Positions 37,010 to 57,366 of a DNA stretch of 64,000 bases are shown piece by piece. The notes below the pieces were generated by a model, which made no database searches, had not been told where the DNA came from, and saw only the letters and a program-made list of their open reading frames with translations. Source of the stretch: Eubacteriales bacterium. Lineage in GTDB: Bacteria; Bacillota; Clostridia; Oscillospirales; CAG-272. The position numbers were made by a program, and so were the translations under genes. The DNA lies in contig JAZQGR010000041.1 in NCBI GenBank assembly GCA_045540115.1, positions 36,638 to 100,637 on the forward strand. Direction: 5' to 3'. The first letter of the stretch is position 1. Each line of letters opens with the position of its first letter.

Positions 37010-37807
37010 TTATATATTGTTTACCAAAAAGTCAAAGCAATTATATTCTATCATTTTATGAAAGTTTTGTTGTATTTTTGTTATAAATTCAAACGCTTTT
37101 AAGTCAATATTATACGGATAAAGGGCACTCTTATATAACACAGTATTACGATCATTGGTGTCTAAATATGTTATACGATTAACGGGCGAAAACTTAGTGT
37201 AAAAAAACTCTACGCAGTTGATTTTTTCATAATTGCTTGAAAAAAATGGATAAAAAACATATCGATCGAAGCAGAAATAAGAACAATGTAGTACACGATT
37301 ATTTTTTAGTACATCTTTGATTACATTATAACCATTGGGGCGCAAATGAATATTGTTATTAATTCTCTGAATTTGTAAATCTGATTTATTGATGGCAACG
37401 ACATCATCGGAAATAAATGTGAAGGAATTATTAACTAAATAACAAGTTAATGTTGATTTCCCCCTAGATGTCGGAGACAAAAAAACATATGCCTTATCCT
37501 TTTTTTGAACAGCAGAAGCATGAAACAAAAAATAATCAGGTATCATTATTGAACTTTCATATATGTATTTATTCAAATAATCGACCGGGTCCCTGACAGT
37601 TAGCTCCAAACCATCAACACACACTTTTGATTGAAAACCGTTCAGAACATCAATATGGATATTGTGTGTTGCCTGCGCAACATTTGTTGCATACTCTCCA
37701 TAGGCAATTTCTAACCATTCGTACAAGTGTCTGCTGTTTGTTGTAATACTATATGATGTTGTATGAAATGGTTTTTGGATGGTTAATTTCATTATAATCA
37801 CTTCCAT
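37010..37807 (-). CDS. HPr-kinase-like P-loop protein (HprK C-terminal-domain family), RiPP cluster 1
   Basis: Walker A SPTSRGKSTLT. Comparable in size and motif to the HprK-like kinases at 47096 and 61671. Confidence 0.65.
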   Translation of the reverse strand: MEVIIMKLTIQKPFHTTSYSITTNSRHLYEWLEIAYGEYATNVAQATHNIHIDVLNGFQSKVCVDGLELTVRDPVDYLNKYIYESSIMIPDYFLFHASAVQKKDKAYVFLSPTSRGKSTLTCYLVNNSFTFISDDVVAINKSDLQIQRINNNIHLRPNGYNVIKDVLKNNRVLHCSYFCFDRYVFYPFFSSNYEKINCVEFFYTKFSPVNRITYLDTNDRNTVLYKSALYPYNIDLKAFEFITKIQQNFHKMIEYNCFDFLVNNI

Positions 37808-39348
37808 ACAGATTTGATTTGATCATAGGTAAGGCCGTAACGCTTGGCAATATCTTGAGCATAGCTCTTACCGTCGCTCTTTTCGCGATACACCTTATAG
37901 GTTCGCCTATCGTGATAAATTCCAACTTTCAGATAATCAATAACAGAACGCGAATTTGCTTGCGCATTATACCTTTCCGTTACTTCAACCACCTCGTGAA
38001 GATGAGTTGAAAAGATGCCACGGCATCCTATATCCGTTACACCGCGAATGAAATCGCAAGCTATATATGTTGCTTCATAGGCATTCGTTGATGAAAGCGT
38101 TTCATCCAAAAGTAACATACTATGGGGAGAAAGCTTTTCTACGATTGCCGACAATCTATGACATTCTTCTTCGAGACGACCCATACCATTTCCGCTTTCG
38201 CCGACACTTTTCGGAAAATGGGTATATAAGCCGAGAACCGGACTTATTGAAGCGCTCTCGGCAGGAACCAACCATCCTAATTGAGCAAACACTTGTATGA
38301 TACCAACGCATCGTAAGAAAACAGATTTACCCCCTTGATTAGGTCCGGTCAAAATATAGAATTGTCCTTTTTCATCAAAAGAAAAGTCGTTCTTTACGAT
38401 TTTAGCAGCACCAACCTGCAGTGCAGTGACCGGATTGTAAGCATTTTTTACCGAAAAAACTTTTTCACCCGTTGGGTGAATTATCGGCTTACAAAGAGGC
38501 AGTCGAAGCTCTGTCAAGAAGCGGTGAATTTTTACGCTTTCTGTAAGGAAAATCAAAACGGGTAATGCTTCCAGCAGTTCTTTACACGAATTAGAAAGAA
38601 ATGCGTCAACCGTTGGCTGCCACTGTGATAGGTTCTTTTTAAACCATTTATTAAGTGCCGTATAGATTGTATCATTCATTAAAGATGACTCATGACGATT
38701 CAAAACTTTCGGTGTCGTAAGAGGAGCCATAGAATGAAGGGCGTTAGCATCTTGAACCGATAACAAGCGCTCAATAAGCGTTTTGCTGACGATCGGCGTT
38801 GTGTTGATGGACAGAATCCCGCCGTCTTTGAGTGACAGGTCTTCATTGAAGTTGAACCCAAGAGAAATACTTCTAATTGAGCCGATCTTTTTCAGAAGCT
38901 CTTTAGTTCCCTCTCTGAGCTTCCGATACTCATCTGATTCAGCCATCTGCACAACTTCAGAATAAAAAGCTCTGATAGAATCCGAGGTTGCATTATTAAA
39001 GTGTTCGCTGTTCTGCGTGATCGTGTCAATGCAATGAAAATATATTTCTAGCTGTTTTACAGAATACAGATGTGTCTCTGCAGCATAATGCGCTTCCCGT
39101 ATATTGACCATGTTTTTAATATACCGCAAATCATCAATAACCGAAAGAAGGACAGCATGTAGCTCAGGAATCGATACAAGGTCATTAATGACATGATTGC
39201 GTTCGCGAATTACTACCTCATCTGTAGAAATATACTCAACCAGGTTTAAATCCTTGGAGTACAAGAGATTATTTAATCCCAGATCTGATATCAGTTCGCC
39301 GGCATGATCGAAAGATTCGTCACATTTTTTGATAATAGAATCAAACAT
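37798..39348 (-). CDS. MutS-family ATPase (MutS2-like: core/clamp plus domain V, no mismatch-binding domain)
   Basis: ILTGPNQGGKSVFLRCVG (Walker A), LLLDETLSSTNAYEA (Walker B), STHLHE (MutS ABC signature). Confidence 0.7.
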   Translation of the reverse strand: MFDSIIKKCDESFDHAGELISDLGLNNLLYSKDLNLVEYISTDEVVIRERNHVINDLVSIPELHAVLLSVIDDLRYIKNMVNIREAHYAAETHLYSVKQLEIYFHCIDTITQNSEHFNNATSDSIRAFYSEVVQMAESDEYRKLREGTKELLKKIGSIRSISLGFNFNEDLSLKDGGILSINTTPIVSKTLIERLLSVQDANALHSMAPLTTPKVLNRHESSLMNDTIYTALNKWFKKNLSQWQPTVDAFLSNSCKELLEALPVLIFLTESVKIHRFLTELRLPLCKPIIHPTGEKVFSVKNAYNPVTALQVGAAKIVKNDFSFDEKGQFYILTGPNQGGKSVFLRCVGIIQVFAQLGWLVPAESASISPVLGLYTHFPKSVGESGNGMGRLEEECHRLSAIVEKLSPHSMLLLDETLSSTNAYEATYIACDFIRGVTDIGCRGIFSTHLHEVVEVTERYNAQANSRSVIDYLKVGIYHDRRTYKVYREKSDGKSYAQDIAKRYGLTYDQIKSVWK

Positions 39349-39379
39349 AAATCTACTTTCTTACATTAACGACAACATT

Positions 39380-39670
39380 TTATTGCCGTGAAATCAAGAT
39401 GTTATTATCAACCATCTCATTAATACACATTTTCATGTCTTGACAGATTTCCTCCAATTCATCGGGGTTCTCTGTATCAAATTCAAAGTAATTTCTCATA
39501 AAGGAGAGCAATTCAATGTCATAAGAGCACTCTTTAAAATAATCGAAAATCCTTGATGATGTTTTGTTTAGAATAATGACTTTTTCATGCTTTTCCAAAA
39601 AAACGATATACTCATCTTCCACATTTTCAATTGAGAGTTCATTATTAACCATCAAATGCTTATATTTCAT
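39380..39670 (-). CDS. PqqD-like RiPP recognition element (RRE) protein
   Basis: MKYKHLMVNNELSIENVEDEYIVFLEKHEKVIILNKTSSRIFDYF...LEEICQDMKMCINEMVDNNIL has a PqqD-like pattern. Start taken at MKYKH, 28 nt after the rSAM stop. Confidence 0.55.
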   Translation of the reverse strand: MKYKHLMVNNELSIENVEDEYIVFLEKHEKVIILNKTSSRIFDYFKECSYDIELLSFMRNYFEFDTENPDELEEICQDMKMCINEMVDNNILISRQ

Positions 39671-39698
39671 ATGTATTCCTTTCATTGATTCTTTTTTC

Positions 39699-41003
39699 CT
39701 ATTGTTCTGCAATTTCATAAACAAGGTATTCTGGGCTCTCTTTAACAAGCTTTAAGTATTTGTTATTATATTTTGTGTCGTTAATCAATTTTTCATAGTA
39801 CTGCTTCCAATACAGTCGCTTACATTCACATTGTTGGGCAAACATTTGCGGTGCTTCTTTGGCTCTTAACGGGCATCCACCTCCGCAGTGAATAAATGCA
39901 ATGCAGTTTTTGCATATCTGGTAATAGTCAGAATAATGTTGAGACGAAATGTTATCACATACATCGAAAAACTCTAACTGCTCGTTCTGTATATTACCCA
40001 AGACAATATTAGAATTATGATCATCTAAACAGTTCAATATTCGACCGCTTGCATCAAGCCAGGGGTTATTGCCATACGCCGCCCCACAATTATCACAACT
40101 TATGAACTGCTTAAAATATGACGATCTAAAATTTATAGGCAACTTGTGTAAATAAACATGTTCTTCCAATCTTACATATTCTTTTACAAAGTTATTATAC
40201 GAACTAGCATGCTTTTTCGCCCTTCCCTCGGGCATTACTGGCTCGATATCCCAAGAGCGAAGATTGGGGAACTCCGTGCTTATATAGTTTGCCATTTTTG
40301 TGAGCAATCCATAATCATCCGGCCAAATTGTTGTTCTAATTGAAAAGTTGAATTTTATTGAGTCCAAATATTTGAGTGTTTTATATACAAATTCATGGGT
40401 ATCATAACAACTTGAACTGCAACGATTTTTATTTTGTGTTTCGGGATTTCCATCATATGATACCATTATGGAATCAAAGTTCGATTCTAAAAATACGACT
40501 TGATTTGTATTCAAAACCCCGTTAGTGGTTATTCCTAAAAAAACAGGAATTCCATGTCGAGCAAAAACTTCTCGAATATATTCTACCGATTCAGTAAGTA
40601 ACGCCCAATTATAGGTCGGCTCTCCCCCTCCCGCAAAATATATTTTGGGAGTATTATAGAGTAAATGCATCTTTTTTCTGATTATTGCATTTTTCACGAA
40701 CCAGTTAACAAATGTTTTCACTTGGGAGAAAGACAATTCGTCTCCTTGCGTTTTGGAGTCAAATGAACAATAATTACAGGAAAGATTGCACCTATTTGTT
40801 AGGCTGATTCCAACTGATAAAGGCATTTTCAGTTTAATGTTATAGGGATCATTATTGTAGGTAATATGGCCAAAGTGAGCTGAGCAATTCTTTGGATCAC
40901 ATTCAACTTTTATTGGGATTAGAGAGGTGACATCAGTTTTTTTTACATATACTCTGTTGTTCAAACCATCAATCAAAACTTTGGCATCGGAATAAGGCAA
41001 CAT
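39699..41003 (-). CDS. Radical SAM / SPASM-domain peptide maturase
   Basis: CxxxCxxC (LTNRCNLSCNYCSF), glycine-rich FAGGGEPT, C-terminal SPASM Cys cluster (CDNCGAAYG...CKNCIAFIHCGGGCPLRA). GGAGG RBS. Confidence 0.8.
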   Translation of the reverse strand: MLPYSDAKVLIDGLNNRVYVKKTDVTSLIPIKVECDPKNCSAHFGHITYNNDPYNIKLKMPLSVGISLTNRCNLSCNYCSFDSKTQGDELSFSQVKTFVNWFVKNAIIRKKMHLLYNTPKIYFAGGGEPTYNWALLTESVEYIREVFARHGIPVFLGITTNGVLNTNQVVFLESNFDSIMVSYDGNPETQNKNRCSSSCYDTHEFVYKTLKYLDSIKFNFSIRTTIWPDDYGLLTKMANYISTEFPNLRSWDIEPVMPEGRAKKHASSYNNFVKEYVRLEEHVYLHKLPINFRSSYFKQFISCDNCGAAYGNNPWLDASGRILNCLDDHNSNIVLGNIQNEQLEFFDVCDNISSQHYSDYYQICKNCIAFIHCGGGCPLRAKEAPQMFAQQCECKRLYWKQYYEKLINDTKYNNKYLKLVKESPEYLVYEIAEQ

Positions 41004-41048
41004 ATAATCCTCCTTTTTACTATTACAGTTAGCATGCGCTAATATAAA

Positions 41049-41231
41049 TTAGATGTTTTGAGCTACATTAGCAACGCAACCGGCCGCCGGTCCGCTCATA
41101 CATACTCCTCCCGAGGTGCATCCCGGGAATTCGAGTGAGCGACAGTCGCCAGATCGCGCTAGTGCCTTGATATCGTTAAGCGCCTTTGAATCAATAACGG
41201 TTATTTGATGCTTTTCATATTTTGTTTTCAT
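41049..41231 (-). CDS. Cys-rich RiPP precursor peptide 1 (60 aa)
   Basis: MKTKYEKHQITVIDSKALNDIKALARSGDCRSLEFPGCTSGGVCMSGPAAGCVANVAQNI. GGAGGAATATT RBS. Four Cys in the C-terminal core; directly upstream of the rSAM gene. Confidence 0.65.
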   Translation of the reverse strand: MKTKYEKHQITVIDSKALNDIKALARSGDCRSLEFPGCTSGGVCMSGPAAGCVANVAQNI

Positions 41232-41319: not shown

Positions 41320-41602
41320 AATATTAACTTGTAAAATCCCCGAAATTATTTTGTTTTTCGATTTATTTCGAATTAAGTTTATTGAATTTGATGAAATATG
41401 CGAAAGAACGATTTCCTAAAACGGTTATTAAAAATCAAAATCTCCAATGGAAGATCCGCGTCTATCATTGGAGACTATTATGTAGTAGCGATAATCCAAT
41501 CCGAAAACTAAAGAATGCCGACGTTTCAGTGAATGGGGACCAACGAAATAGTCAATATTTACAAAAAAATAAGTCAAGCCTCAAAGTCTGTTTAGAACTT
41601 GA
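41320..41602 (+). repeat. Third copy of the IS3-family right-end region (no transposase body), ending TAGAACTTGACTCCTATTCAA
   Basis: Homology to 33620-33845 and 42540-42760 (for example GTTTTTCGATTTATTTCGAATT versus GGTTTTTCGTTTGGAACTCGATTTTTGAATT). The terminal 22 nt are nearly identical to remnant A. Confidence 0.45.
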
Positions 41603-42760
41603 CTCCTATTCAAAAGATGAAGAAATAAATTACAAAAAGCGATATGAAATACTAAAAAATACCAAGCCTTCCTCAAGGCACAACGAGAGAAAAAGTAATA
41701 TTTATCAATATGCACATCGAAGAATACTCACTCGACAATATGTGTGAGGTGTTAGATATTTCGAAGAGAACGTATTACAAGTATCGTGCAGCAGAAGATA
41801 AAGACTACTACGACTACCTTTTGATCAAAGAAATGTTTGATGAATCAAAAGGCACGTACGGTTATAGTAGGATTTGTGATGGCTTATTGGTTAAATATGG
41901 TGTAATATTTAACCACAAAAAGACAGCAAGAATCATGAAAAAGTATGGTTTAAAGCCGGAGTATATTAAACGCATCAGACCAAACTACTCAGCTAAAAGG
42001 CAAGAAGAAAACGTTAAACCGAATTTGCTCAAAAAGAACTTTAATGTTAGTGAACCCAATCGGGTGTGGGTTACAGATATTACGTATCTGATCTTTGGCA
42101 ACAAACGAGCTTATCTATCTACTATTCTTGACCTTTATGATAGAAAAATCGTTGCGTATCAGATCTCGAAACGCAACGACATTAAATTAGTTATTGATAC
42201 ATTGAATCAAGCTATTGCTAAAACGAAGGATGCATCAAGCCTTATCATTCACAGTGATCAAGGCTTTCAATATACATCCTTCGAGTACAAAGCCGTATGC
42301 GAATCTAATGGGATACAAATTTCCATGAGTCGAAAAGGCACTCCGATCGACGATTCCCCCATTGAGAGTTTCCATAGCATACTGAAAAAAGAAACTTTGT
42401 ATAACAATTATATCACATCTTTCGATGAATATCTACTGCTTGTTGAGGATTGTTTGAATTTCATAATACTTCAAAAGCAAAAAACAGGAAGAGATGAGTT
42501 CTCTTCCTGCCTTTGTCGTGGTTTTCTATTCTTGTGAACTAAATAGGGTTCACTTCACTTTTCTACCAAAGAAAAAAACCGTAGTGTCTAAATCGCGCGG
42601 CTCAAAAGTCGTTACTGGTTTTTCGTTTGGAACTCGATTTTTGAATTTTTACAAAAACGATTTTAAATGGGCGAAAATATAAAAAGCCTGAATGTATCGA
42701 TAAGAAATAGCAGTCATTTTCTCACAGTCCAATAAAGCTGTTGAGAGCTTTGCCCATATT
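41603..42760 (+). mobile_element. IS3-family element right part: orfA C-terminal fragment, orfB (integrase core, 41710..42537, C-terminus degenerate) and IRR
   Basis: orfB has the DDE/rve core (VWVTDITYL...HSDQGFQYTS...). The region upstream is in a different frame with stops, so it is frameshifted and probably a pseudogene. The 3' region is homologous to remnant A. Confidence 0.65.
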
Positions 42761-43062
42761 CGATATCCGTGATATCACGATACAAAAAATATAATTTTTT
42801 TCGTATAAATTTGATGAATTTTCAAATAATATCATTTTATATATTGAAAAAATGCAAAATGTGTGATATAATAAAATAAAAAAGTGAAAAAACACAAAAA
42901 TTATGAAGATATTTAACGGAAGATTATTGCGACGAAGCGTTAGATTGTACAATTTTTAAGCAATCGAATTGGTAGTTAGAAATATAATTATTGAATTTGT
43001 ATTAATTTTGAATCATTTGTCAAGCTGTTATTTAGTGAAAATACGTTTATGGGAGAATTATT

Positions 43063-44856
43063 ATGAAATCAGTAATAAAAGCCAATAAAGAAAATTTAAA
43101 ATACCTTTTTCGACATTTCTGGCCGCTTATTATTGTAGAATTGTTGTTTGCAATTACAAGTGGAGTTTCAGGAGCGATATCTTCATTCATGTCAAAAACA
43201 TTTATAAATAGTATAATTAATGACAAAAGCTTAAAAGTTGCAATGAATGTTGTTGTTGCGGTTGCGATTTTTGTGCTATTTAAAAATATAATTCAAAGTA
43301 TTGTTAAAGTTTATTCAAACTATGTGTTTTCTAAAGTAAGAGTGTTTTCAAAAACTATTTTTTTAGGATATACGAAACAACTAAATTTATCTTTTTTTGA
43401 TATACCAGAAAACAATAATTGTTTGTCACGTGCAGACCAATATTCCAATGTTGGCACAGAACAATTTATTTCATATGTTTTTTCAGTATTCGCCAATATA
43501 ATCGGGTGTATAAGTATATTGTTGATAATGTCCGATTTTGAGTGGTGGATTGTGTTTTTTTTACTGGTGTTGATGTCTTATAAATTAATAATTGAAAATT
43601 TTCTTTCAAAAAGAAATTTTAAATTTAAAAAGGAACGAGTTATACGCGAGCGACGGATCGGTTATTTTTCAAATTCATTCAAGAGTGCTTCGATATTAAC
43701 AGATTTGCATATATACGATGGCATTGATTTTTTTAAGCATCTATTTGAAAAACATTCGGAGGAAAATATCAATTTACAGACCAAACACAATTTTAAAACT
43801 GAATTGTTGTTTGCTTCAACCTACTTAACTGTTTTTATACAGAATATTGTTTTGTACTTGTATGTAGGTACTGCATTGCTGAATGGGTCCATAAATATTG
43901 GAGAATTTACGATGTTTTTTTCTGCTATCGGCTATTTAAATGCGTTACTGCTTAATTTTAAAAATTCCATATCAACACTATATCCAATTATCTTGGAATC
44001 TCAAAATTATTTAGATCTGATCAACATCGATTCAAAATATAAATATAATATACAAAAGTCGGGTCGAGTAAAGGTTGATAACATTAAGACAATCGAATTT
44101 AAACATATCTATTTTAGGTATCCGAAAAGGACTAACTTTGTTCTGAGCGACGTATCGTTTACTATAAATATGGGGGAGACAATATCTCTTGTAGGGATAA
44201 ATGGATGCGGCAAAACAACAATAATTAAATTATTGCTTAGGTTATATGAACCTACGGACGGACAAATCCTAATTAATGGTATCTCAATAGAAGAAATTGA
44301 TATCGAGAATTATTGGAAATTATGTAGCACTGTTTTTCAAGATTATTGTATTTATCCGATATCTGCATTTGAAAATATATCTTTGAATTGTGTTACCAAA
44401 AGCAACGCTGAATATGTCGCGGATTTAATGAAAAAAGTAGATATTGCGTATAGGTTTGATAAAGAACAAATGGGCATTTTCACTCCTCTTTCAAGAGATT
44501 TTGATGAAAATGGTACGGTTCTTTCAGGCGGCGAAAAACAAAAAATTGCTTTTGCAAGAGCAAGTTATAAGCCTCATTCTATACTGATATTAGACGAGCC
44601 GTCCAGTGCTTTGGATGCGCGAGCAGAGCAGGCATTATTTGATTATGTTGATTGTACTAAAAGCCACAATAAAATTGTAATTTTTGTTTCACACAGACTA
44701 TCAACATCAACCACTGCAGATAAAATTATATATATTGAGAATGGATGTGTATCCTGTTGTGGTTCCCATGACTACATGATGAACAATTGTAGTTCATATA
44801 AAGAGCTGTTTGAAATTCAATCTTCTAAATACGAGCAAACAAGTGTAAATAAATGA
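43063..44856 (+). CDS. ABC exporter, fused permease and ATPase (no C39 peptidase domain), RiPP cluster 2
   Basis: Six TM helices, then Walker A GINGCGKTT, signature LSGGEKQKIAFARA, Walker B ILILDEPSSALD. Confidence 0.8.
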   Translation: MKSVIKANKENLKYLFRHFWPLIIVELLFAITSGVSGAISSFMSKTFINSIINDKSLKVAMNVVVAVAIFVLFKNIIQSIVKVYSNYVFSKVRVFSKTIFLGYTKQLNLSFFDIPENNNCLSRADQYSNVGTEQFISYVFSVFANIIGCISILLIMSDFEWWIVFFLLVLMSYKLIIENFLSKRNFKFKKERVIRERRIGYFSNSFKSASILTDLHIYDGIDFFKHLFEKHSEENINLQTKHNFKTELLFASTYLTVFIQNIVLYLYVGTALLNGSINIGEFTMFFSAIGYLNALLLNFKNSISTLYPIILESQNYLDLINIDSKYKYNIQKSGRVKVDNIKTIEFKHIYFRYPKRTNFVLSDVSFTINMGETISLVGINGCGKTTIIKLLLRLYEPTDGQILINGISIEEIDIENYWKLCSTVFQDYCIYPISAFENISLNCVTKSNAEYVADLMKKVDIAYRFDKEQMGIFTPLSRDFDENGTVLSGGEKQKIAFARASYKPHSILILDEPSSALDARAEQALFDYVDCTKSHNKIVIFVSHRLSTSTTADKIIYIENGCVSCCGSHDYMMNNCSSYKELFEIQSSKYEQTSVNK

Positions 44857-45947
44857 TCTATGATACTATGAGGTGTAACATGTACGAAACAATTACTGCA
44901 AAGACTGTGTTAATAGAAATAACTAATACGTGCAATATGAGATGTACACATTGCTATAATAGATTCGATAGAGAATTACATCCCAAGCCATGCTATATGA
45001 CTTTGGAAAATGTAAAGCATATTATCGAAAAATGTATTTTATATAAATTAAATAAATTGTATATTTCTGGGGGTGAACCATTGTGTCATCCGGATATAAC
45101 TAGAATTATTGATTTGTGTGGTAATTATCCAGATATATATTTTACAATTACTACCAATGGGCTATTGCTTACCGAAGAAATCATCAATCAAATAGAACAA
45201 CATACCAATATATGTGTTCAAATCAGTGTCGATGGATTGTCTAAAGAAGTATATGAAGCGCAAAGGGGAATAGGTACATTTGAAAAATTTATATCTGTAT
45301 TGGATCTACTAATTTCCTCTAAAATCAAATATTTAACCGCACGAACTTGTGTAACAAAGCTAAATTACCGGGAAGTAAAATACATATATGAATTTTTGCT
45401 GAATCATAATATTATGCCTTCTTTTTTATTCGTAAATCAAATGGGAAATGCAGCCGAAAACTGGGATATATTATCCCTAAGTATGGCAAATCAGTTAAAA
45501 GTTCTTAATGATATCAATGTATTAAACAAAAAATATTCACAAACTATTACTCCGCCGGAACCAGTATCAACTTGCAATTTTACTGAAAATGTTGAAGTTA
45601 AATCTATGTTGATTAAATATGACGGAAATGTAGCCCCGTGTCAATATTTTTATTCAGAAAACATAGGTAATATTTTTGAAAAGGATGTTTCTGAAATACT
45701 TAATTATGAAAATTTAAAAAGCTATTATGAGTTAGCAAGATACAGAAAAGAGGTTCTTGAGTCAAGCAACACGTGTTCTAATTGTAGAATAAAAAGGATT
45801 TGTTCATATGGTTGCATAGGGCTTGCAAAAATTTGTGGGGATACTTTGGGAATGGATGGTCAGTGTTCTTATCGAACACACGTTGTGTCAATGTATTCGA
45901 ACGGAATAATTCCTATGCCGGGCAAAGATGTGGAGGATTTATTGTAA
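44853..45947 (+). CDS. Radical SAM / SPASM-domain peptide maturase
   Basis: ITNTCNMRCTHCYN (CxxxCxxC), ISGGEPL, C-terminal CSNCRIKRICSYGCIGLAKICGDTLGMDGQC. ATGA overlap with the ABC gene stop. Confidence 0.8.
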   Translation: MIYDTMRCNMYETITAKTVLIEITNTCNMRCTHCYNRFDRELHPKPCYMTLENVKHIIEKCILYKLNKLYISGGEPLCHPDITRIIDLCGNYPDIYFTITTNGLLLTEEIINQIEQHTNICVQISVDGLSKEVYEAQRGIGTFEKFISVLDLLISSKIKYLTARTCVTKLNYREVKYIYEFLLNHNIMPSFLFVNQMGNAAENWDILSLSMANQLKVLNDINVLNKKYSQTITPPEPVSTCNFTENVEVKSMLIKYDGNVAPCQYFYSENIGNIFEKDVSEILNYENLKSYYELARYRKEVLESSNTCSNCRIKRICSYGCIGLAKICGDTLGMDGQCSYRTHVVSMYSNGIIPMPGKDVEDLL

Positions 45948-46504
45948 TGAAAAAAATTTTTGCAAAATTCAAACAAGTAACGATCGCATGTGCAATATCT
46001 ATGATTATATATGTGTTAACTTATTGGATAACATCCGCTTTTATGAATGCGACATCCAAGCCGATGTATTTGCTTGCGTTAGGAATTTATTCGCTTATGT
46101 TCATGTGTGTATTAAATTTGATTTTGATTTATCGTGAATATATCAAAAACTCTGCTGGCGAAGAAAATGCAATACAAGATTTCAAAAATGGATATTGGGG
46201 ATTCAAAACAGATATAATCTTTTTATTTAGACGTGAATTATCCACTCTTATTACATTTGCATTAATAAATAGCACAAGTTGGATAATGATATCGATAGAT
46301 AAACTGATTTTTTCGAAAAGAACTATAACTGCGATTCTTTTGTTATATGCGCCGTTAAATATTGTAGGTATCACTTTGCCTACATGGGCTAATAGTATAT
46401 TGGGATATTTATTGGGAACCATTTTGTGTTTTGCGATATATCTTTTGGAGCTTGTGATCTTTCGCAAAAAATGGTATATACATTGGAATGAGACAAGGAG
46501 GTAA
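45948..46504 (+). CDS. Polytopic membrane protein (candidate immunity or export accessory)
   Basis: Start at MKKIFAKF; 4-5 TM helices; immediately precedes the precursor gene. Confidence 0.5.
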
Positions 46505-46506
46505 AA

Positions 46507-46767
46507 ATGTTTTATAAACCAAAATTGATAGAAATCTCTATTGAAGAACTTATCAACCATATTCGTATTAAAGCTGATTCTTATACTGGTCCGTCTTGTA
46601 CATGGTCATATGTTGAGGAATACGCATGTGGCGTTTGGGCCGATGGTAGTGATGGTGCCGGGGGCGGAGATTGGGGAAATATGTGTATTGAAATCGGTCC
46701 TTTATTTGGTTGCAATGAACATGAGGATTGGTATTGTAGCACACAAATAACGCCTATCGTTAGATAA
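46507..46767 (+). CDS. Cys-containing RiPP precursor peptide 2 (86 aa)
   Basis: Perfect AGGAGG RBS. Leader-like N-terminus (MFYKPKLIEISIEELINHIRIKADSY), then a core with five Cys and a Gly-rich stretch (GSDGAGGGDWGN). Confidence 0.55.
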   Translation: MFYKPKLIEISIEELINHIRIKADSYTGPSCTWSYVEEYACGVWADGSDGAGGGDWGNMCIEIGPLFGCNEHEDWYCSTQITPIVR

Positions 46768-46839
46768 AAAATTATTACAAGCTCCCTCGAATTAGATTTT
46801 AAAATTATAAGTTGGGTTACTTTAAGCAAGGAGAAATTC

Positions 46840-47103
46840 ATGAAATATATAATAAATCAAGACTTCGATAAGATAGATGATGAGAATAAGACTATTTTGT
46901 TCACAGGTACTGTTGAAAATGTGTACATACTAAACGAAATAGAGACACAGATTTGGAAATTGTTTGATCGCCCCTGCTTTATCACTGAAGCACATGAAAA
47001 GTTTGATACAGTTACTAGTCAAGTAAAGGTTAAGAAAGAAGATTTTTTTGATTTTGTTGAGCAATTAATTATTATGAGGATCTTAATTTTATCTAATGAT
47101 TAG
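46840..47103 (+). CDS. PqqD-like RRE protein
   Basis: ILNEIETQIWKLFDRPCFITEAHEKFD...EDFFDFVEQLI. AAGGAGAAATTC RBS. Confidence 0.55.
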   Translation: MKYIINQDFDKIDDENKTILFTGTVENVYILNEIETQIWKLFDRPCFITEAHEKFDTVTSQVKVKKEDFFDFVEQLIIMRILILSND

Positions 47104-47893
47104 GATATCTTTCCAATTCTCTAATTGTTCCTTTATTGTGGATTCTCCAGCTATTATTGAATCACATATATTTGAAAAGTTTCTTTTGTTTGCTGAATTT
47201 ATAAAAGCAATTGACCATGAAAGTCAAAGTATAGTGATTTGCGTAAACGAAAATGATATAAACATTTATAACAATAAAACAAGAAGAAATCACATCATTA
47301 GATGTGATTCTCATTACGATGTATTTAAAAAGATTATTAATTTGATACGCGAGAATACGATAGTCAACGGTGATGTTTGTGTATTACATGCGTCTTTTAT
47401 AAAAATGTTTAATAACGGTATTCTATTATTAGGGGAGAGTGGTGCTGGCAAGTCGACTTTATCAGCATATCTTCATCTGATGACAGGATGTGAATGTTAT
47501 ACAGATGATATAGCATTTATGAATTATAATACGAAGGTAACTCAAGGCGTGTCGCAATATATTAATTTGAGGTCGTCTTCACTGGATTTGTTACCCGCAA
47601 ACCATAATGCGGTTTATGATGATTTTATTGAACGATATAAAATCATCATAAACAATCGTTCTAAAGAAAAGGTGGATTATATCGTTATGTTGAATCGGCA
47701 AAACGATTCAGAGGTTGGAATAAAACCAATTGAAAACCCTATAAAAGTGTTGACACAAAATATGTATTTACCATATTCATTAAAGAATAATATTATTGCT
47801 GCCAATAAATTAGCAGCTCAAAGCAACGTATATGAAATGTGTTATTCAGATTTGTTTTCTGCATATAATCTTTTGAGCGAATTAGAAGGTTGA
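47096..47893 (+). CDS. HPr-kinase-like P-loop protein
   Basis: LLLGESGAGKSTLSAYL Walker A; overlaps the PqqD gene stop. Confidence 0.65.
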   Translation: MIRISFQFSNCSFIVDSPAIIESHIFEKFLLFAEFIKAIDHESQSIVICVNENDINIYNNKTRRNHIIRCDSHYDVFKKIINLIRENTIVNGDVCVLHASFIKMFNNGILLLGESGAGKSTLSAYLHLMTGCECYTDDIAFMNYNTKVTQGVSQYINLRSSSLDLLPANHNAVYDDFIERYKIIINNRSKEKVDYIVMLNRQNDSEVGIKPIENPIKVLTQNMYLPYSLKNNIIAANKLAAQSNVYEMCYSDLFSAYNLLSELEG

Positions 47894-48390
47894 TGCACAT
47901 GTTATTTTTATGGATGCTCTTGTTGATTATTATTGTATTTTAAAAATACCTTTATTTGATTATTAAGAGATTTCATCTTCTAAGAAAAATAGGTAAACTA
48001 ATCTTGAATTCTGCGCCAAAATCAATCAGCAAAGCAGATGACGCAACACTTACAGCGCTCTATAACAACGACGATTTAATTCCCGTTGTCAAAGTGTGTG
48101 GATTAAAATGGTTTGTTGAAAATGTTTTTGAGCAAGAGGAGAGATAAGATTGGTAATGAAATACATAAGGTAAATGTTAAATGCCCACAAGCAGAAAATT
48201 ATTTGCAAAATCTTCTTTTCTTTGTGCAGATCAAGGAATATAAGCTATTGATCAAATAAATGTTTTTATGACAAAAGAAAAAAAGAGTTATTGCGGTGTT
48301 GTGAATAACAACTCTTTTTACGCAACAAAACAATGTTTACAAATTGAATTAAAGTGGTAACTACGCTCTTTGTAATTCCACATATTTCCT

Positions 48391-48898: not shown

Positions 48899-50545
48899 CT
48901 ACACGTAATTGTTGTTCAGATTTTCATTGACTTTATATCCACCTCCGAATATTATATCAATCTTCCCGTCTTTGTAAACTTTGATGCACTCAACCATCTG
49001 TCTTACAATCGTGTCATCGTATACATCTCTATTCATCTCCCTTTGGCCGATCGTGTTTTGAATACTCTTTAAGCGCTCCGCATAGGATTCGTCTTTCGCT
49101 TCGCTTTCGCGGATTGTTTCAATTCTTCGTTTGAGCTGTTCTGTTTCATCTGAGATAGCCTTGAACTCATCCTCATGACTTTCGATGTCTTCTCCGTTCT
49201 GAACGCTCTCATTGACAAGGTAGATCATTCGTTTATTCAGTGCATCGATTCTTCGTTCTAGCAAGTCGATCTCGTCGGAGCCACCGTTAAGCCCTATCGC
49301 ATCGCCGATAGTCGCCTTCATAAGTGTGAGGTATGTTGCTCGGTCATCATCGTTGAATCGGTTTAACGCTCTGACGATTGCTTGTTTCAAAACACCTTCT
49401 TCTACAGTTGGTGAGTCGGTACAATACTTTGTGCCATAGTCAAGTCGACTGATGCATCGCCATACGATTTTCTTTTGACCATTTCTAGACCACGTCACTC
49501 GTTTGTATCGACTTCCGCATTCTCCGCATATCATCACATCAGTTAATGCGTATTTGGAATACTTTCCCGTGGCAGTTAAAGCATTCTTTGTAGATTTTGG
49601 TGCAAGCGCATTTCGTCTGCTCAGTTCTTCTTGGGTTCTATTGAACTTTTCTCGGCTGATGATAGCGGGGTGATTATTTTCTACGAGGTACATCGGAGCT
49701 TCACCCTCATTGATTTTGCGTTCTTTTGTAATACAGCTTACCGTGACGGTCTTCTGCAGAATACAGTCACCGCAGTATTTTTCATTTCGCAGAATGTTTT
49801 GTACCATTCTCTTGGTGAATTTAAACTCCTTGTTCGGGAAGGTTATATTTTCAGATTGCAATATTGAGGAGATGTCTCGCATTGGCATACCGGCAAGAAA
49901 CATATCAAAGATCCGCTCTACCACGGCTGCTTCCTCGGGAACTATTTCGGGTTCTCCGTCGGCTCCTTTTTTATATCCGAGCAGTTGGCTGTACCTGAAT
50001 GACACTTTTCCTTCTTCGAAGTTTTTTCGGAAGCTCCATGTTATGTTTTTACTCATACTTTCAGATTCCGACTGTGCGAAACCTGCGTATATGACAAGGT
50101 AGAGTTCACTATCGCTCTTGAGCGTATCGATGTTTTGTTCTTCGAAGTAAATTCCAATTCCTCTTGCTTTCAGCATTCTAACATATTCAAGGCATTCTAC
50201 GGTGTTTCGAGCGAAGCGTGATACCGACTTCGTGATGATGATGTCGATCTTACCCGCGAGGCAGTCTTTTATCATCTGCTTGAATTGAGGACGCTTATCT
50301 GCTCGTGTGCCTGAAATACCTTCATCGGCGTACAGACCTGCAAATTCCCATTCGGGATTTTTGGCAATCATTTCTGTGTACACTTTTTTCTGTGTTGTAT
50401 AAGAAGTGAGCTGCTCATCGCTGTCAGTGGACACTCGGCAGTAAGCTGCGACTCGTTTTTGATGGTGCTTTTCCTTGTCTACGATCAAGCTTTTCTTTGG
50501 TTCTATGATCGTTATTGTTTTCTTTGGGATTTTCCTAACATTCAA
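48899..50545 (-). CDS. Large serine recombinase (third of the tandem set)
   Basis: Resolvase catalytic N-domain (AAYCRVSTDSDEQLTSYTTQ...SVSRFARN), recombinase domain, zinc-ribbon (CGECGSRY...C) and coiled-coil. Confidence 0.85.
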   Translation of the reverse strand: MNVRKIPKKTITIIEPKKSLIVDKEKHHQKRVAAYCRVSTDSDEQLTSYTTQKKVYTEMIAKNPEWEFAGLYADEGISGTRADKRPQFKQMIKDCLAGKIDIIITKSVSRFARNTVECLEYVRMLKARGIGIYFEEQNIDTLKSDSELYLVIYAGFAQSESESMSKNITWSFRKNFEEGKVSFRYSQLLGYKKGADGEPEIVPEEAAVVERIFDMFLAGMPMRDISSILQSENITFPNKEFKFTKRMVQNILRNEKYCGDCILQKTVTVSCITKERKINEGEAPMYLVENNHPAIISREKFNRTQEELSRRNALAPKSTKNALTATGKYSKYALTDVMICGECGSRYKRVTWSRNGQKKIVWRCISRLDYGTKYCTDSPTVEEGVLKQAIVRALNRFNDDDRATYLTLMKATIGDAIGLNGGSDEIDLLERRIDALNKRMIYLVNESVQNGEDIESHEDEFKAISDETEQLKRRIETIRESEAKDESYAERLKSIQNTIGQREMNRDVYDDTIVRQMVECIKVYKDGKIDIIFGGGYKVNENLNNNYV

Positions 50546-51413
50546 GGCCGTATTCTCCTTCCTCTACATCGGTTTCTGTCTTAGTATGTAGCGTAACTTT
50601 TCCTGAACTGTCAAGGCTTACGTAGGCAATGAGATCCGAGAAGTATTCGCTGTTAAACGTGCTTTGAGGTTCCATTAGCATCGCTCTTTTCCTTGCGATT
50701 TGAGCGACAATCATTTGCTTGGCTTGAGTTTCCTTATAGAGCTGTGTTGCAATGTCTCCTGTGCGGGCAACTACATATTCCTCGCTCGGTCGCTCTCTGC
50801 TCAGTTCAGTAAGGATATCCGCTTGATACTTTTCTACTGTTGGGGAGTCTTGAAATTTGAGCTTAGGCTTGGGTAGCATAAATTCTGAATTTGCTATGAT
50901 CCGATTCATAATGATCGTTATCTTTTGAATCAGATCCGTGTCGCTGATTCGAGTTCTTCTTCCACATTCGTCGTTGGTGCAAATCCAGCTTTCTTTGATT
51001 CGATTCTTCGAGCATATGCGTCTGACCATCTGCGAACCGCAGGTTGCGCATTTTACTCGATTACGGAGAAGATTGAGTGCTTCGCATTCACGCTCTACAA
51101 CTCCGCGTTGTCTTGCAATCTTTGCGTTTACCGCTTCTTCATATGTCTCTTCATCGATTATCGGATCGTAATCATCAAATCCTGTGTATTTGGCATTGTC
51201 GATGATTCTTGCTATTCTCGCTTTATCCCACACAGATTTTTTCTCCGTATATGGTATACACCTTGCTGTCAGATCTTCAGCAATCTCTTTGAGCGAAGAT
51301 CCGTTGATGTAGTCATTAAAAATCTGTCTTATTACATCAGCTTCTGTGTGTTCGATTACAGTCCGTCCGTCTCGAATGGTGTATCCATATGGAATAAAGC
51401 GAGTCTTTTTCAT
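50535..51413 (-). CDS. Recombinase-domain protein lacking the resolvase catalytic domain (zinc-ribbon plus recombinase domain only)
   Basis: The 292-aa product has no S-nucleophile resolvase N-domain but has a recombinase-domain-like region and a Cys4 ribbon (CATCGSQMVRRIC...CTNDECG). Confidence 0.6.
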   Translation of the reverse strand: MKKTRFIPYGYTIRDGRTVIEHTEADVIRQIFNDYINGSSLKEIAEDLTARCIPYTEKKSVWDKARIARIIDNAKYTGFDDYDPIIDEETYEEAVNAKIARQRGVVERECEALNLLRNRVKCATCGSQMVRRICSKNRIKESWICTNDECGRRTRISDTDLIQKITIIMNRIIANSEFMLPKPKLKFQDSPTVEKYQADILTELSRERPSEEYVVARTGDIATQLYKETQAKQMIVAQIARKRAMLMEPQSTFNSEYFSDLIAYVSLDSSGKVTLHTKTETDVEEGEYGLEC

Positions 51414-51422
51414 TTTCTTCTC

Positions 51423-52967
51423 CTAAATCAGCTCTGTGAATTTCAGCCCACCGATGAGGGTTATAGTCATCTCATCTTTTTTATTGATTGTCATATCCAC
51501 CACAGTATCAAAGAACAGTTTTTCGTCGAACTCTTCAAGGGGTTCTTCGATTTCATCAAGCAAGGCTTGTAGTTTTTTTACTTCCGTCAACATATCGGTT
51601 ATTCTATTCTCGAAGCTGTCTTGGCGGTCAACCTTCAGCACGGACAGTTGATTTCGTAGTTCTCTTGCTTGTGCTTGATAAACATCTGATGTAAGGTATC
51701 CCTTCGAATGCAGTTGATCGAGCATCATGAGTTTCGAGTTTATCTCAGCTATACCTTGGCTGATTTCTCGTGCAGTCTGATTGTTCTTCTTATGTATCAA
51801 GCTTGCCATTTCGAGCTTGGATATTACTTGGCTGAGTATTCTTTCTTCGCCGAATCTAAGCTTGTTAATCATCGTAAGGAAGCCATCGTAGATTCGTTCT
51901 TCGCTGTAATAGAAGGAGTCGCAAGCAGTTCTGTCCTCGTTGTGTCTACTACAAAGCCATTTAATTTGTCCTGAGCGGACTTTTCTTCGGAAGAACGCTC
52001 CGCATTCAGCACACCGTATTTTGCTTGTGAGGGGGTAAACATTCAAGCCAACAGGCGCTTTGCTGTACTGGCTCTTTCGTTTATCAAGTAGGGCTTGGGC
52101 TTTCTCGAAGGTTTCTCGATCAATGAAGGCATCGTGAGTTCCGGATGCGTAATACATATCCTCGTCACCACGATTCTTCATTTGCTTGAATGGAACCGTT
52201 GTAGATCGGAAGGTCTTTTGATATTTACAATCCCCAACATATCGCTCATTTGAGAGCATATATGCAATCTTTGTCGATCTCCATTTTTCCTTTCCGTTTT
52301 TGGTAGGGATTTTTTTCTCGGTAAGTTCGCGTGCTATCTCGCTTGTAGAGCATCCCGACAGATACATCTGAAAAATCATTCGGACAATTTCTGCTTCGGG
52401 TTCGTATACTGAGAGTCTTTTATCTATCAGTCTAAAACCGTAGGGAGCGTTGCTATCGACGTAGTCACCGCTTTCCATACGCTTAGTTATCGACATTCTT
52501 ATGTGTTGCGAAATCGCTTGAGACTCTTCCTGGGCTATTGCCGAGAAAGTATTAAGAAGCATTTCGTCGCCGATTGATAAGGTGTTGATGCCCTCTTTTT
52601 CAAATATGACGCCGACACCTAAACTTTTCAGCTTTCTTACATATTCAAGCGATTCCTTAACATTTCGAGCGAATCTTGACATTGATTTCACTATTATCAG
52701 ATCAATCTCTCTTCGCTCGCACATTCTCATCATTCTTTGAAACTCGGGGCGGGTTTGGGATTGTGTTCCACTGATACCCTCATCAGCGAATATGTCGACA
52801 AGTTCCCACTCGGGTTTCTGTTTTATCATCTTCTGATATACGCGTATCTGCGTAGCATAGGATGATTTTTGGTCTGCATAGTTTGTGGAGACACGGCAAT
52901 AGGCTGCCACTCTCTTCTTTTGAATGCCTTGTTTGGTGATCGGTGAGATCAGCTTAACCTGTGCCAT
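51423..52967 (-). CDS. Large serine recombinase (first of the tandem set)
   Basis: AAYCRVSTNYADQKSSYATQ catalytic region, KSMSRFARN, zinc-ribbon, coiled-coil. Start at MAQVK with an AAAGGAG RBS. Confidence 0.85.
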   Translation of the reverse strand: MAQVKLISPITKQGIQKKRVAAYCRVSTNYADQKSSYATQIRVYQKMIKQKPEWELVDIFADEGISGTQSQTRPEFQRMMRMCERREIDLIIVKSMSRFARNVKESLEYVRKLKSLGVGVIFEKEGINTLSIGDEMLLNTFSAIAQEESQAISQHIRMSITKRMESGDYVDSNAPYGFRLIDKRLSVYEPEAEIVRMIFQMYLSGCSTSEIARELTEKKIPTKNGKEKWRSTKIAYMLSNERYVGDCKYQKTFRSTTVPFKQMKNRGDEDMYYASGTHDAFIDRETFEKAQALLDKRKSQYSKAPVGLNVYPLTSKIRCAECGAFFRRKVRSGQIKWLCSRHNEDRTACDSFYYSEERIYDGFLTMINKLRFGEERILSQVISKLEMASLIHKKNNQTAREISQGIAEINSKLMMLDQLHSKGYLTSDVYQAQARELRNQLSVLKVDRQDSFENRITDMLTEVKKLQALLDEIEEPLEEFDEKLFFDTVVDMTINKKDEMTITLIGGLKFTELI

Positions 52968-53125
52968 GAGTACTCCTTTCGTTAGCATAGTGATCGGTCA
53001 ATACAAATACTCTTTGATTTGACCTTATTCCAACACAATTATATTGAAGAAGCGTTGGAAGTCCAGCGAGAATCGCCATCAATTTCGATGTTTTTGAAAA
53101 ATTTCAAATACAGACATAACTTGCT

Positions 53126-53284
53126 TTATTCCACGACAACAATGTCTGCTCCGGTAAGGTTTTGATAGTACTTTTTAGCTCTTGCATATTCTTTCTGTGT
53201 TATTATGCCATCTGCAAGTAAGCTCCGCAGTACAGATACGATTCGAAGGAAATTGGCGGATTTAGTTTGTTTTTCTGCTATCAT
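53126..53284 (-). CDS. Small 52-aa protein upstream of the recombinases
   Basis: Hand-translated MIAEKQTKSANFLRIVSVLRSLLADGIITQKEYARAKKYYQNLTGADIVVVE, with a perfect GGAGGAAC RBS. Below the ORF-track cutoff. Confidence 0.4.
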   Translation of the reverse strand: MIAEKQTKSANFLRIVSVLRSLLADGIITQKEYARAKKYYQNLTGADIVVVE

Positions 53285-53331
53285 AGTTCCTCCTTTGGCG
53301 GGACTCTCTTACGAGAGCCCCGCACTCGTTT

Positions 53332-55572: not shown

Positions 55573-56133
55573 TTTGGTTTCCTTTCCGTTTGGCAGAAGA
55601 ATGGTATGCAGAAGAAGCAGTAACTTCTTCTGCACAGTAGTTCCGCTGCCAAACATAAAAAATCATGTTCAGAATTGGAGGATCATCGTATTTATTACAG
55701 CCCCCGACGATCCGCAAGGTGCTAAGAGGCTGTCAATTTTTCCTCTGCACAATTTGTAGGGGAGGTTCGGAGTACCTTGCAGCATGCATGTCATGACTTC
55801 TTTCATGACAACAAGGATCATATATGGCGTAGAGGCATTTTCAGCACGAGACGACCATATCACGCCCACCGGCGAGCCGCTGTTAACGGAAGTCTCATTA
55901 TTCACCACTCGGGGTTATGGCCTACGAAGCAATGCTGTTTACTGCTCCGCCCTCCCAAAGTTTATCGCTCGCTCCCGTAAGAGGTCCTGGCGCCTTTGTT
56001 TGGCGGCTTTCCTTTCGGCCCGAATGGGTTCTTCCTCGGAATCCCATCTATTCAATTGTCAAACGAGGCCACAATTTCTTTTTTGCCCCTCACTCTGTAT
56101 TCCACAATTATTTTCGATTTAACAACCAAAAGA

Positions 56134-57069: not shown

Positions 57070-57366
57070 TTATTGTTGCCAAATAATTGGCTCCTTATTT
57101 TTCCCATTCATTGTTTGTGTAGTTGCTTCGATATCTTTCAAAACTTGTAAAATTTTGTTTGTCGTATTCATTTCACCAATCAACAGCTTAGAGTCTGGAA
57201 TTTCACATTCGAATTCATCCTCGACACCAACAATGATTTTAATGAAGGTAATAGAATCCATGCCAAGTTCAGATAGATCATCATCAAGCTTATCCTCGGT
57301 TACTTCTGCATTCTCGATGTTTGCGTTTAATATTTCTATGACTTTTCCAACAGTTATTTCTTTCAT
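57070..57366 (-). CDS. Acyl/peptidyl carrier protein-like (phosphopantetheine-attachment motif)
   Basis: LGMDSITFIKII matches the PP-binding DSL/GxDS motif. 98 aa, acidic. Confidence 0.6.
   Translation of the reverse strand: MKEITVGKVIEILNANIENAEVTEDKLDDDLSELGMDSITFIKIIVGVEDEFECEIPDSKLLIGEMNTTNKILQVLKDIEATTQTMNGKNKEPIIWQQ

Follow-up and report, generated by a model that had tools for sequence, protein, structure and literature searches.

The DNA described here is a stretch of 64,000 nucleotides (nt), hereafter the window, from contig JAZQGR010000041.1 (positions 36,638 to 100,637 of the forward strand) of the assembly GCA_045540115.1, representing a Eubacteriales bacterium of the Clostridia (Oscillospirales, CAG-272). 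Within a region of low GC content (30-38% GC at ~34-48 kb, against ~47% in the first 30 kb), it harbours six plus strand open reading frames (ORFs) spanning 43063-47893, all of which are present at these coordinates in the ORF listing of the window. These encode, in order, an ATP-binding cassette (ABC) exporter, a radical S-adenosylmethionine (rSAM) enzyme with a SPASM domain, a membrane protein with four putative transmembrane (TM) segments, an 86 amino acid (aa) peptide, a PqqD-like protein and an HPr-kinase-like (HprK-like) P-loop protein (Table 1). The locus, termed cluster 2 since clusters 1 and 3 lie on either side of it, is a real radical-SAM cluster for a peptide that is made by ribosomes and modified post-translationally (RiPP); its precursor family is undescribed and its HprK-like kinase unusual.

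Gene content and conservation of the cluster

A first-pass annotation of this DNA had recognised a RiPP-like cluster with rSAM/SPASM, PqqD-like and HprK-like genes, and each of these assignments is now backed by profile matches. It had also taken 43063-47893 as the limits of the cluster; the six ORFs stand, but the downstream boundary does not, as the unit extends past 47893 into the remnant of a seventh gene.

Relatives of cluster 2 were numbered as loci L001-L023. The close set consists of L001-L008 and L016-L018, while L009-L015 form a more distant set, with rSAM enzymes 41-53% identical to that of the window, and L020 (from Faecousia) and L022 (from Eubacteriales) are distant clusters in which this identity is only 28-29%; the contig of L019 ends inside the precursor gene. 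In the close set, drawn from human, pig and other gut assemblies, the order of genes for the ABC exporter, the rSAM enzyme and proteins of 185-189 aa, 85-86 aa, 87-91 aa and 264-265 aa is syntenic, counted where the contig covers the genes. A three-gene core recurs in L009-L015, in differing gene orders. Purifying selection acts on each of the six genes, the ratios of nonsynonymous to synonymous substitution (dN/dS) being 0.05-0.33 (0.05-0.29 for the five genes other than the precursor), and such conservation exceeds chance.

Table 1. Features of cluster 2, its surroundings and related loci. Coordinates are those of the window, except in the last row, where they are those of the related loci named.
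Feature	Position	Strand	Description
ABC exporter	43063-44856	+	597 aa, permease fused to ATPase; ABC_tran 1.6e-29
rSAM/SPASM enzyme	44880-45947	+	355 aa; ORF could open at 44853 (364 aa)
4-TM membrane protein	45947-46504	+	185 aa; candidate immunity or export-accessory protein
Precursor	46507-46767	+	86 aa; predicted leader 1-25 (46507-46581), predicted core 26-86
PqqD-like protein	46840-47103	+	87 aa; probable stand-alone RiPP recognition element (RRE)
HPr-kinase-like P-loop protein	47096-47893	+	265 aa; probable peptide-tailoring kinase
Seventh-gene remnant (pseudogene)	47899-48147	+	184-189 aa single-TM gene after the kinase in all close relatives
Promoter-like site	42844-42872	+	TTGAAA, 17-nt spacer, TG-extended TATAAT; ~190 nt upstream of the ABC gene
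Cluster 3	57070-62510	-	HprK-like 279 aa, PqqD-like 96 aa, rSAM 348 aa, SipW-type peptidase, ABC exporter, NTP_transf_5 (3.3e-15), acyl carrier protein (ACP)
SipW/archaeal-type signal peptidase I of cluster 3	60020-60325	-	TIGR02228 2.7e-15, 56.6 bits, cut-off 51.85
PF05183 RNA-dependent RNA polymerase gene	L005 1996-4935; L006 1996-4935; L007 1680-4751

The precursor peptide

The 86 aa ORF had been singled out as the candidate precursor for its AGGAGG ribosome-binding site (RBS), its five cysteines and a glycine-rich segment, and the sequence confirms all three. The AGGAGG lies at 46496-46501, separated by a 5-nt spacer from the start codon; the cysteines are Cys31, Cys41, Cys60, Cys69 and Cys77, the Gly-rich stretch is DGSDGAGGGDWG and the C-terminal residue is Arg. 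Ten full-length homologues with 64-88% identity were found in gut metagenomes, and the dN/dS of the precursor, calculated against three relatives, is 0.06-0.33, in the same range as those of the enzyme and transport genes. The family is small: of 1.84 billion representative proteins searched with its profile, just 16 clusters were recovered. It has no match in the PDB or among curated families. It is undescribed in the literature and databases searched.

In advance, the candidate had been made to depend on its conservation in homologous clusters and on no other small ORF being consistently found there instead. It is conserved and under purifying selection, and a match to the precursor hidden Markov model (HMM) is present in every locus whose rSAM enzyme is at least 41% identical to that of the window, L009 carrying two copies. 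Co-occurrence with the enzymes is likewise strict, with HprK-like and PqqD-like genes in each such locus where the contig reaches (that of L019 being cut off), and no alternative small ORF replaces the precursor in the homologous clusters examined. A conserved leader joined to a variable core is the usual pattern of RiPP precursors. In L020 and L022, the PqqD-like/HprK-like pair is kept alongside 48-58 aa ORFs with the same type of leader and short, differing Cys/Gly cores; with the leader kept and the core varied, these loci therefore display that signature.

An alignment of 22 precursor sequences has invariant Ser25, Cys60, Pro65, Cys69 and Cys77, and nearly invariant Ala23, Cys31, Gly64 and Gly68. 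A GPLxGC motif and the five spaced cysteines are conserved along the entire 61-residue core, which in the window ends ...TPIVR, most members of the family ending in Arg or Lys. The N-terminal 25 residues, MFYKPKLIEISIEELINHIRIKADS, end in A23-D24-S25 and follow the family pattern (W/Y)-x-(K)-P-x-L-I-x-I...E-E-L-I...K-A-D-S, with an [A/G/S]-x-S junction occupying a single alignment column. The ORF thus has the properties expected of RiPP precursors in general, in that it adjoins modifying enzymes, is conserved, keeps its leader and contains modifiable residues in its core. Such features indicate that it is most likely a real gene and the precursor peptide of the cluster.

The radical-SAM/SPASM enzyme

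The rSAM enzyme matches both Radical_SAM (PF04055; 5.6e-25, 88.9 bits against a cut-off of 29.5) and SPASM (PF13186; 4.9e-9, 36.8 bits against a cut-off of 21.5) above threshold. Numbered from the upstream start at 44853, the CX3CX2C motif (C27/C31/C34) is invariant in the family, as are seven SPASM cysteines (C241, C263, C308-x2-C311-x5-C317-x3-C321 and C338). The first-pass annotation had the gene open at 44853; the true start is most likely the ATG at 44880 instead, because the homologues are 355 aa long and a GAGGTG sits 5 nt upstream of this codon. The protein begins directly at the radical-SAM core, without a fused N-terminal RRE domain.

By profile comparison, the nearest solved structures are those of the sactisynthase SkfB (3.9e-26) and CteB (3.6e-16), while those of PqqE and SuiB align nearly full-length at ~1e-10. 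Because SkfB and CteB form thioethers, cross-links of this kind are proposed here. The best curated matches are ScmE (2.6e-28), a tungsten-enzyme maturase, NirJ1 and MftC (2.6e-24), all far below cut-off. The family is itself compact, comprising ~30 clusters at 39-88% identity, beyond which identity falls to 33%, at 104 bits.

The PqqD-like and HprK-like proteins

Alone, the 87 aa protein is weakly PqqD-like, with a match to ScmD at 1.4e-3 that is under the cut-off and no match in Pfam. Across its family, five of seven members match ScmD and three of the seven match PF05402 weakly, with one matching lasso_PqqD_Bac, the Bacillus-type lasso PqqD, at 8.9e-5. A profile of 13 sequences from this family has as its top full-length PDB matches the PqqD protein 9x8z_B (0.002), TbiB1 (0.0038) and TfuB1 (0.1). 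Similarly, hhalign against the PqqD half of a protein in which this domain is fused to an S24-type peptidase gives an E value of 6e-4. A fusion of this kind is encoded at L001 2472-3134 on the minus strand. The 87 aa protein is therefore a probable stand-alone RRE, judging from these profile similarities.

The 3' end of the PqqD-like gene overlaps the start of the kinase gene by 8 nt. The kinase matches TIGR04352 (HprK_rel_A) at 1.2e-10 over residues 94-263, with 41 bits against a cut-off of 200, and Hpr_kinase_C at 3.2e-5, again below the curated cut-off; by these scores it is homologous to, but not a member of, HprK-related kinase A, a family matched by eight of the nine members of the kinase family. 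Its best PDB match is the HPr(Ser) kinase 3tqf_A (0.0037), in an alignment spanning the motif segment. The conserved residues comprise H98, G118-K119-S120-T121 and two acidic residues at 137-138; neither H98 nor K119 varies, and the D137-D138 of the window is [D/E][D/E] across the family. The protein thereby carries the His-Lys-Asp-Asp motif of lasso-peptide kinases, found by mutagenesis to be essential in PadeK and ThcoK (review PMC9266682). Those HprK-like enzymes phosphorylate the precursor peptide and not the mature lasso (PMC9266682). On the basis of these motifs and homologies, the 265 aa protein is a probable peptide-tailoring kinase.

Alternatively, the HprK-like protein might not be a peptide kinase at all, acting instead as an ATP-dependent scaffold or chaperone for the PqqD-rSAM pair, or phosphorylating a non-peptide substrate that feeds the FkbH-domain, ACP and NTP_transf_5 proteins encoded near related clusters; we regard this as unlikely. 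FkbH enzymes use phosphorylated glycerate donors, which would suit such a role, and FkbH and ACP genes co-occur in many related loci. However, the HprK-like gene is retained, overlapping the PqqD-like gene, where no FkbH, ACP or NTP_transf_5 gene is nearby (cluster 2, L011/L012 and L022). The core of the precursor has no invariant Ser or Thr that might serve as acceptor, and the match to the HprK family is confined to the P-loop domain and falls below cut-offs, yet the family has kept the catalytic His and Lys as well as the acidic residues, and the sole characterised homologues from RiPP clusters are true peptide kinases acting on the precursor (PMC9266682). A peptide substrate is the reading we prefer for this enzyme.

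The exporter and the membrane protein

The ABC exporter aligns to positions 146-707 of the 708 in bacteriocin_ABC (TIGR01193) and to 158-709 of the 710 in NHLM_micro_ABC1. Because the alignments begin only at model position ~146-158, the exporter lacks the C39 peptidase domain, which the curated peptidase-exporter models did not detect at its N-terminus; the protein begins directly with the membrane domain. The gene is syntenic in L001-L008 and L016-L018, with a dN/dS of 0.07-0.15.

Hydropathy peaks in the 185 aa membrane protein fall at residues ~10-33, 38-63, 126-145 and 148-174, and it has no match in Pfam or NCBIfam. Its start codon overlaps the stop codon of the rSAM gene (TAATG). The gene is kept at its position in close relatives only, where its dN/dS is 0.17-0.25. 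L009, L013 and L022 also encode 4-TM proteins, which may be equivalent by topology and position only, as the HMM of the 185 aa protein misses them.

The downstream remnant and predicted removal of the leader

The seventh gene is degenerate in the window: its first 14 codons run into a TAA stop, after which the ORF at 47956-48147 matches the family HMM at 2.6e-21, and blastn comparison with L016, L005 and L001 gives two homologous blocks between which ~325 bp are missing. Homology of the window to the relatives stops near 48130. In these, the single-TM gene is usually followed by genes for a 128-166 aa Peptidase_S24-type protein, an NTP_transf_5 protein, an ACP and an FkbH-domain protein (5.4e-73); this signal peptidase/NTP_transf_5/ACP/FkbH series follows the cassette in L005-L008 and L016-L018, and is missing after that of the window. 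By contrast, L011 and L012, which lie in a chromosomal context, carry only rSAM, PqqD-like, HprK-like, 4-TM and precursor genes.

Cluster 2 might accordingly be a decaying, non-functional copy, carried as cargo on a mobile island and yielding no mature peptide in this host, an explanation that we think improbable. The in-frame stop and the deletion in the seventh gene would fit it, as would the three serine-recombinase ORFs that succeed the end of homology at ~48130, an IS3 transposase 0.5 kb upstream and the absence of the downstream genes. However, none of the six core ORFs is disrupted, their RBSs are intact and their starts coupled, and they are 64-92% identical to their relatives, with substitutions that are mostly synonymous. 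The minimal core of L011/L012 indicates that such a set can persist alone, and cluster 3 of the same island offers a signal peptidase, an NTP_transf_5 protein and an ACP. A functional operon is the favoured interpretation.

As the exporter has no C39 domain, the first-pass annotation had concluded that another protease must remove the leader, a view for which there is now a candidate. The S24-type proteins of the relatives are archaeal/SipW-type signal peptidases I (7.2e-10 for the L005 copy), without a membrane anchor by eye, and they are present in most related clusters, directly downstream of the cassette in L005-L008, L009, L015 and L016-L018. Cluster 3 has the only such gene in the island, and its product may possibly act in trans as leader peptidase for cluster 2. 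Signal peptidase I cuts after small residues at positions -3 and -1. The A-x-S junction fits this rule, which is why the leader is predicted to be removed after Ser25. An earlier estimate of residues ~27-86 for the mature peptide hence holds as a prediction of the core, with its start moved to residue 26. Ser25 was also considered as a phospho-acceptor, and this was judged less likely than its being the -1 residue for cleavage, its column always being accompanied by a small residue at -3.

The S24-type domain also occurs fused to NTP_transf_5 in a protein encoded at L023 5341-6891. Together with the S24-PqqD fusion in L001, this ties the accessory genes to the pathway, as far as gene fusions are a guide.

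Comparison with known systems

Judged by profile scores, the curated system that comes closest to the enzyme trio is the SynChlorMet (SCM) cassette, composed of ScmC, ScmD, ScmE and ScmF (NCBIfam TIGR04249, TIGR04248, TIGR04250 and TIGR04251), with which cluster 2 shares the combination of an rSAM/SPASM enzyme, a PqqD-like protein and an HprK-related P-loop protein. ScmE is the top match of the rSAM enzyme (2.6e-28) and ScmD of the 87 aa protein (1.4e-3), while the HprK-like protein matches ScmC at 0.088, and faint PF27840 matches occur in relatives. Nevertheless, the scores are far below cut-offs (99 against 400 bits for ScmE, 18.8 against 100 for ScmD and 12 against 125 for ScmC), and cluster 2 has a single rSAM enzyme rather than two, and adds a clear precursor as well as the ABC exporter and the membrane protein. 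To our knowledge, the SCM cassette is uncharacterised, with no identified precursor or substrate, and our literature search found nothing on SynChlorMet. Likewise, the search turned up no publication on a radical-SAM peptide cluster with an HPr kinase, and HPr-kinase-like enzymes in RiPP clusters were found for lasso peptides only.

With the lasso-peptide tailoring kinases PadeK, ThcoK, SyanK and PsmK, the protein of cluster 2 has in common the HprK-like P-loop domain, the His-Lys-Asp-Asp residues and a place in a RiPP cluster beside an RRE (in cluster 2 a probable one) of the PqqD family; the NTP_transf_5 gene of the relatives similarly recalls psmN, which encodes the NTP_transf-type partner PsmN. 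Unlike those systems, 43063-48147 contains no lasso cyclase or B2 peptidase, and the main modifying enzyme is of the rSAM/SPASM type. Lacking a cyclase, a B2 peptidase and the C-terminal Ser of the precursor, this is not a lasso system.

Sactipeptide and ranthipeptide systems resemble cluster 2 in combining a Cys-rich precursor with a SPASM-type rSAM enzyme; SkfB provides the nearest structure, and StsB (8e-21) and PapB (2e-19) are matched. These matches are nonetheless weak relative to their cut-offs (74 against 625 bits for StsB and 70 against 340 for PapB), and RumMC was not among the matches listed. The maturases SkfB, CteB, PapB and StsB normally have an RRE fused at the N-terminus; in cluster 2 it would be a separate protein, as in PqqD/PqqE. 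The core of ~61 residues also differs, and neither a kinase nor a leader protease of the signal peptidase type is part of those systems.

The stand-alone PqqD-like partner, the rSAM/SPASM enzyme and a small peptide substrate are also features of pyrroloquinoline quinone (PQQ) and mycofactocin biosynthesis, and the start of the leader, F-Y-K-P-K-L-I-E-I, resembles by eye the corresponding W-K-K-P-x-F-I-D-L of PqqA. On this model, the 86 aa peptide could be the precursor not of a bacteriocin but of a small molecule, cofactor-like or used in signalling, that is cut out of a few conserved residues such as the C-terminal ...P-I/V-x-R once the rSAM enzyme has modified them. PqqA/D/E and MftA/B/C have this architecture, the best full-length curated matches include MftC (2.6e-24, positions 15-331 of 339), PqqE aligns over residues 10-330 and the C-terminal motif with its terminal Arg/Lys is conserved. 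We nevertheless hold this explanation to be very improbable: the rSAM enzyme is far below the cut-offs for both MftC (86 against 265 bits) and PqqE, the neighbourhood has no redox-enzyme partners or cofactor-pathway genes, containing instead the exporter, the membrane protein, a mobile-element context and, in relatives, agr-type genes, and the long core has its five spaced cysteines and GPLxGC motif conserved throughout, which suggests that the whole of it matters. Judged by gene content and profile scores, then, this is not a lasso, PQQ or mycofactocin locus, and no curated sactipeptide or ranthipeptide maturase model is reached.

Proposed function

We consider it fairly probable that cluster 2 is a RiPP operon, its product most likely a secreted bacteriocin, situated in a gut Clostridia bacterium on a mobile island of low GC content. 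Residues 1-25 of the precursor would be bound as a leader by the stand-alone 87 aa PqqD-like protein, which would present the 61-residue core to the rSAM/SPASM enzyme, itself without a recognition domain. This enzyme would cross-link Cys31, Cys41, Cys60, Cys69 and Cys77, probably as thioether bridges, and the HprK-like protein, translationally coupled to the PqqD-like gene, would transfer phosphate from ATP to one of the hydroxyl groups in the peptide. The leader may then be cut off after Ala23-x-Ser25 by a soluble SipW-type signal peptidase, encoded in the clusters of relatives and in the window only in cluster 3. The ABC exporter would release the product, with the 4-TM protein providing self-protection or aiding export. 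An antimicrobial role is suggested by the bacteriocin-like context, comprising the ABC exporter, the agr-type genes beside L009 and L015, and the recombinase, integrase and MobL genes neighbouring the cassettes.

Several observations weigh against this interpretation. The rSAM enzyme is far under the cut-off of every curated family, so the type of cross-link is a guess, and a core of 61 residues is long for a radical-SAM-modified peptide. The lack of an invariant Ser or Thr in the core across the family alignment means that the acceptor for the kinase is not obvious; known lasso kinases act on a conserved Ser at the C-terminus, where this precursor has Arg. Structure prediction was of little help, since a single-sequence AlphaFold2 model of the PqqD-like protein had a pLDDT of 60.9 and Foldseek matches that were noise, and that of the HprK-like protein, from an 11-sequence alignment, was unusable at a pLDDT of 39.9. 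Finally, because the seventh gene and the signal peptidase/NTP_transf_5/ACP/FkbH module have been lost here, and an IS3 element lies upstream, the copy in the window may make an incomplete product or none.

A more elaborate proposal can be made tentatively, as a possibility rather than an expectation: that the cluster represents an undescribed class of gut Clostridia RiPP, in which a Cys-rich peptide of ~60 residues is cross-linked by a PqqE/ScmE-like rSAM enzyme and phosphorylated by an HprK-like enzyme recruited via the same RRE. In full clusters, the phosphate would be decorated by the NTP_transf_5 protein and glyceryl-ACP (FkbH), and the leader would be removed in the cytoplasm by a soluble enzyme of the signal peptidase I type at A-x-S. 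As a speculation, the signal peptidase, exporter, NTP_transf_5 protein and ACP of cluster 3 could serve the product of cluster 2 in trans.

Transcription signals

The promoter-like site upstream of the ABC gene was the top match of a scan, agreeing at 11 of 12 positions; this is a consensus match only, and the total of such sites in the region is not above shuffled expectation. No attenuator hairpin was found after the precursor gene (fold z-score +1.57). An invariant 9-mer, ACAAGCTCC, lies at 46778-46786, between the precursor gene and the PqqD-like gene, and recurs in the corresponding spacer of L001, L005 and L016. ACAAGCTCC is complementary to the GGAG of the RBS downstream. The predicted fold of this region is no better than shuffled, and both sides are invariant, hence covariation offers no evidence for it.

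The related clusters and the mobile island

Cluster 1 (37010-41231) and cluster 3, both on the minus strand, each have HprK-like, PqqD-like and rSAM genes. The HprK-like proteins of the three clusters are 25-36% identical, in the P-loop region only (E ~1e-5), and the rSAM enzymes 23-27% identical, which bears out the first view of cluster 2 as an old paralogue of cluster 1. Just upstream of cluster 3, at ~62655-62795 on the minus strand, is a 45 aa ORF (MYIRPTVTIMNLEDLLCAIGACRNN...) that is precursor-like by eye. A leader shared by clusters 1, 2 and 3, which had seemed discernible by eye, was not supported by a leader-only HMM, whose best E value was 2.8, for this 45 aa ORF; the same HMM had no match to the candidate precursor of cluster 1 (41049-41231). 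Cluster 1 also contains, between its HprK-like and PqqD-like genes, a gene for a 516 aa MutS domain V ATPase (37798-39348, minus strand; PF00488 7.4e-24, KamC-reactivase-like 6.4e-24), an odd component for a peptide-modification cluster.

Several other genes occupy the surrounding region. At the start of the low-GC island is a 666 aa ORF (34451-36451, minus strand) with no match in Pfam or NCBIfam and an HD-like motif by eye (LLHDAGHLPYSH). The IS3-family transposase between clusters 1 and 2 (41382-42537, plus strand; rve 2.8e-27, HTH_21 2.2e-13) has a 121 aa ORF upstream of it. The segment at 48899-55656, on the minus strand, contains three tandem serine-recombinase ORFs, the middle one without the Resolvase catalytic domain, followed by genes for a 774 aa DinG-like helicase (Helicase_C_2 3.1e-32) and a 184 aa protein with sigma-70 region 4; the whole resembles an integrative element lodged between clusters 2 and 3.

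The genes near the cassettes of relatives include those for serine recombinases, tyrosine integrases, MobL and RepA/ParB, and because of these neighbours the cassette is interpreted as cargo of mobile elements. In the mobile elements of L005-L007, a gene whose product of ~1000 aa has an RNA-dependent RNA polymerase domain of the eukaryotic type (PF05183) lies just upstream of the cassette. Among the distant clusters, agr-type modules flank those of L009 (2807-5663) and L015 (3009-5853), comprising a LytTR regulator, a histidine kinase, AgrB and a 39-46 aa AgrD-like ORF; such modules are consistent with density-regulated bacteriocin production.

A search of 185,579 species-representative genomes found one close locus, with 92% identity, in a Clostridia metagenome-assembled genome from sheep colon, and a metagenome scan found four loci only. 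Similar DNA was not found in plasmid or phage collections, nor was there a relative among the viral contigs of IMG/VR.

Implications

The family is thus rare, and mobile elements carry it in the gut communities of humans, pigs and sheep. Both narrow-spectrum antimicrobials and new enzyme chemistry are currently being drawn from the radical-SAM RiPPs of gut anaerobes, and cluster 2 gives a defined, conserved precursor for the trio of rSAM/SPASM, PqqD-like and HprK-related proteins, making the function of the HprK-related branch directly testable with four genes. It also points to an unusual leader protease, of the soluble SipW type, and to a possible pathway of phosphate-linked decoration. If the proposal of an undescribed class were true, the uncharacterised HprK-related/ScmC-type proteins of SCM-like cassettes would also gain their first substrate and their first function.

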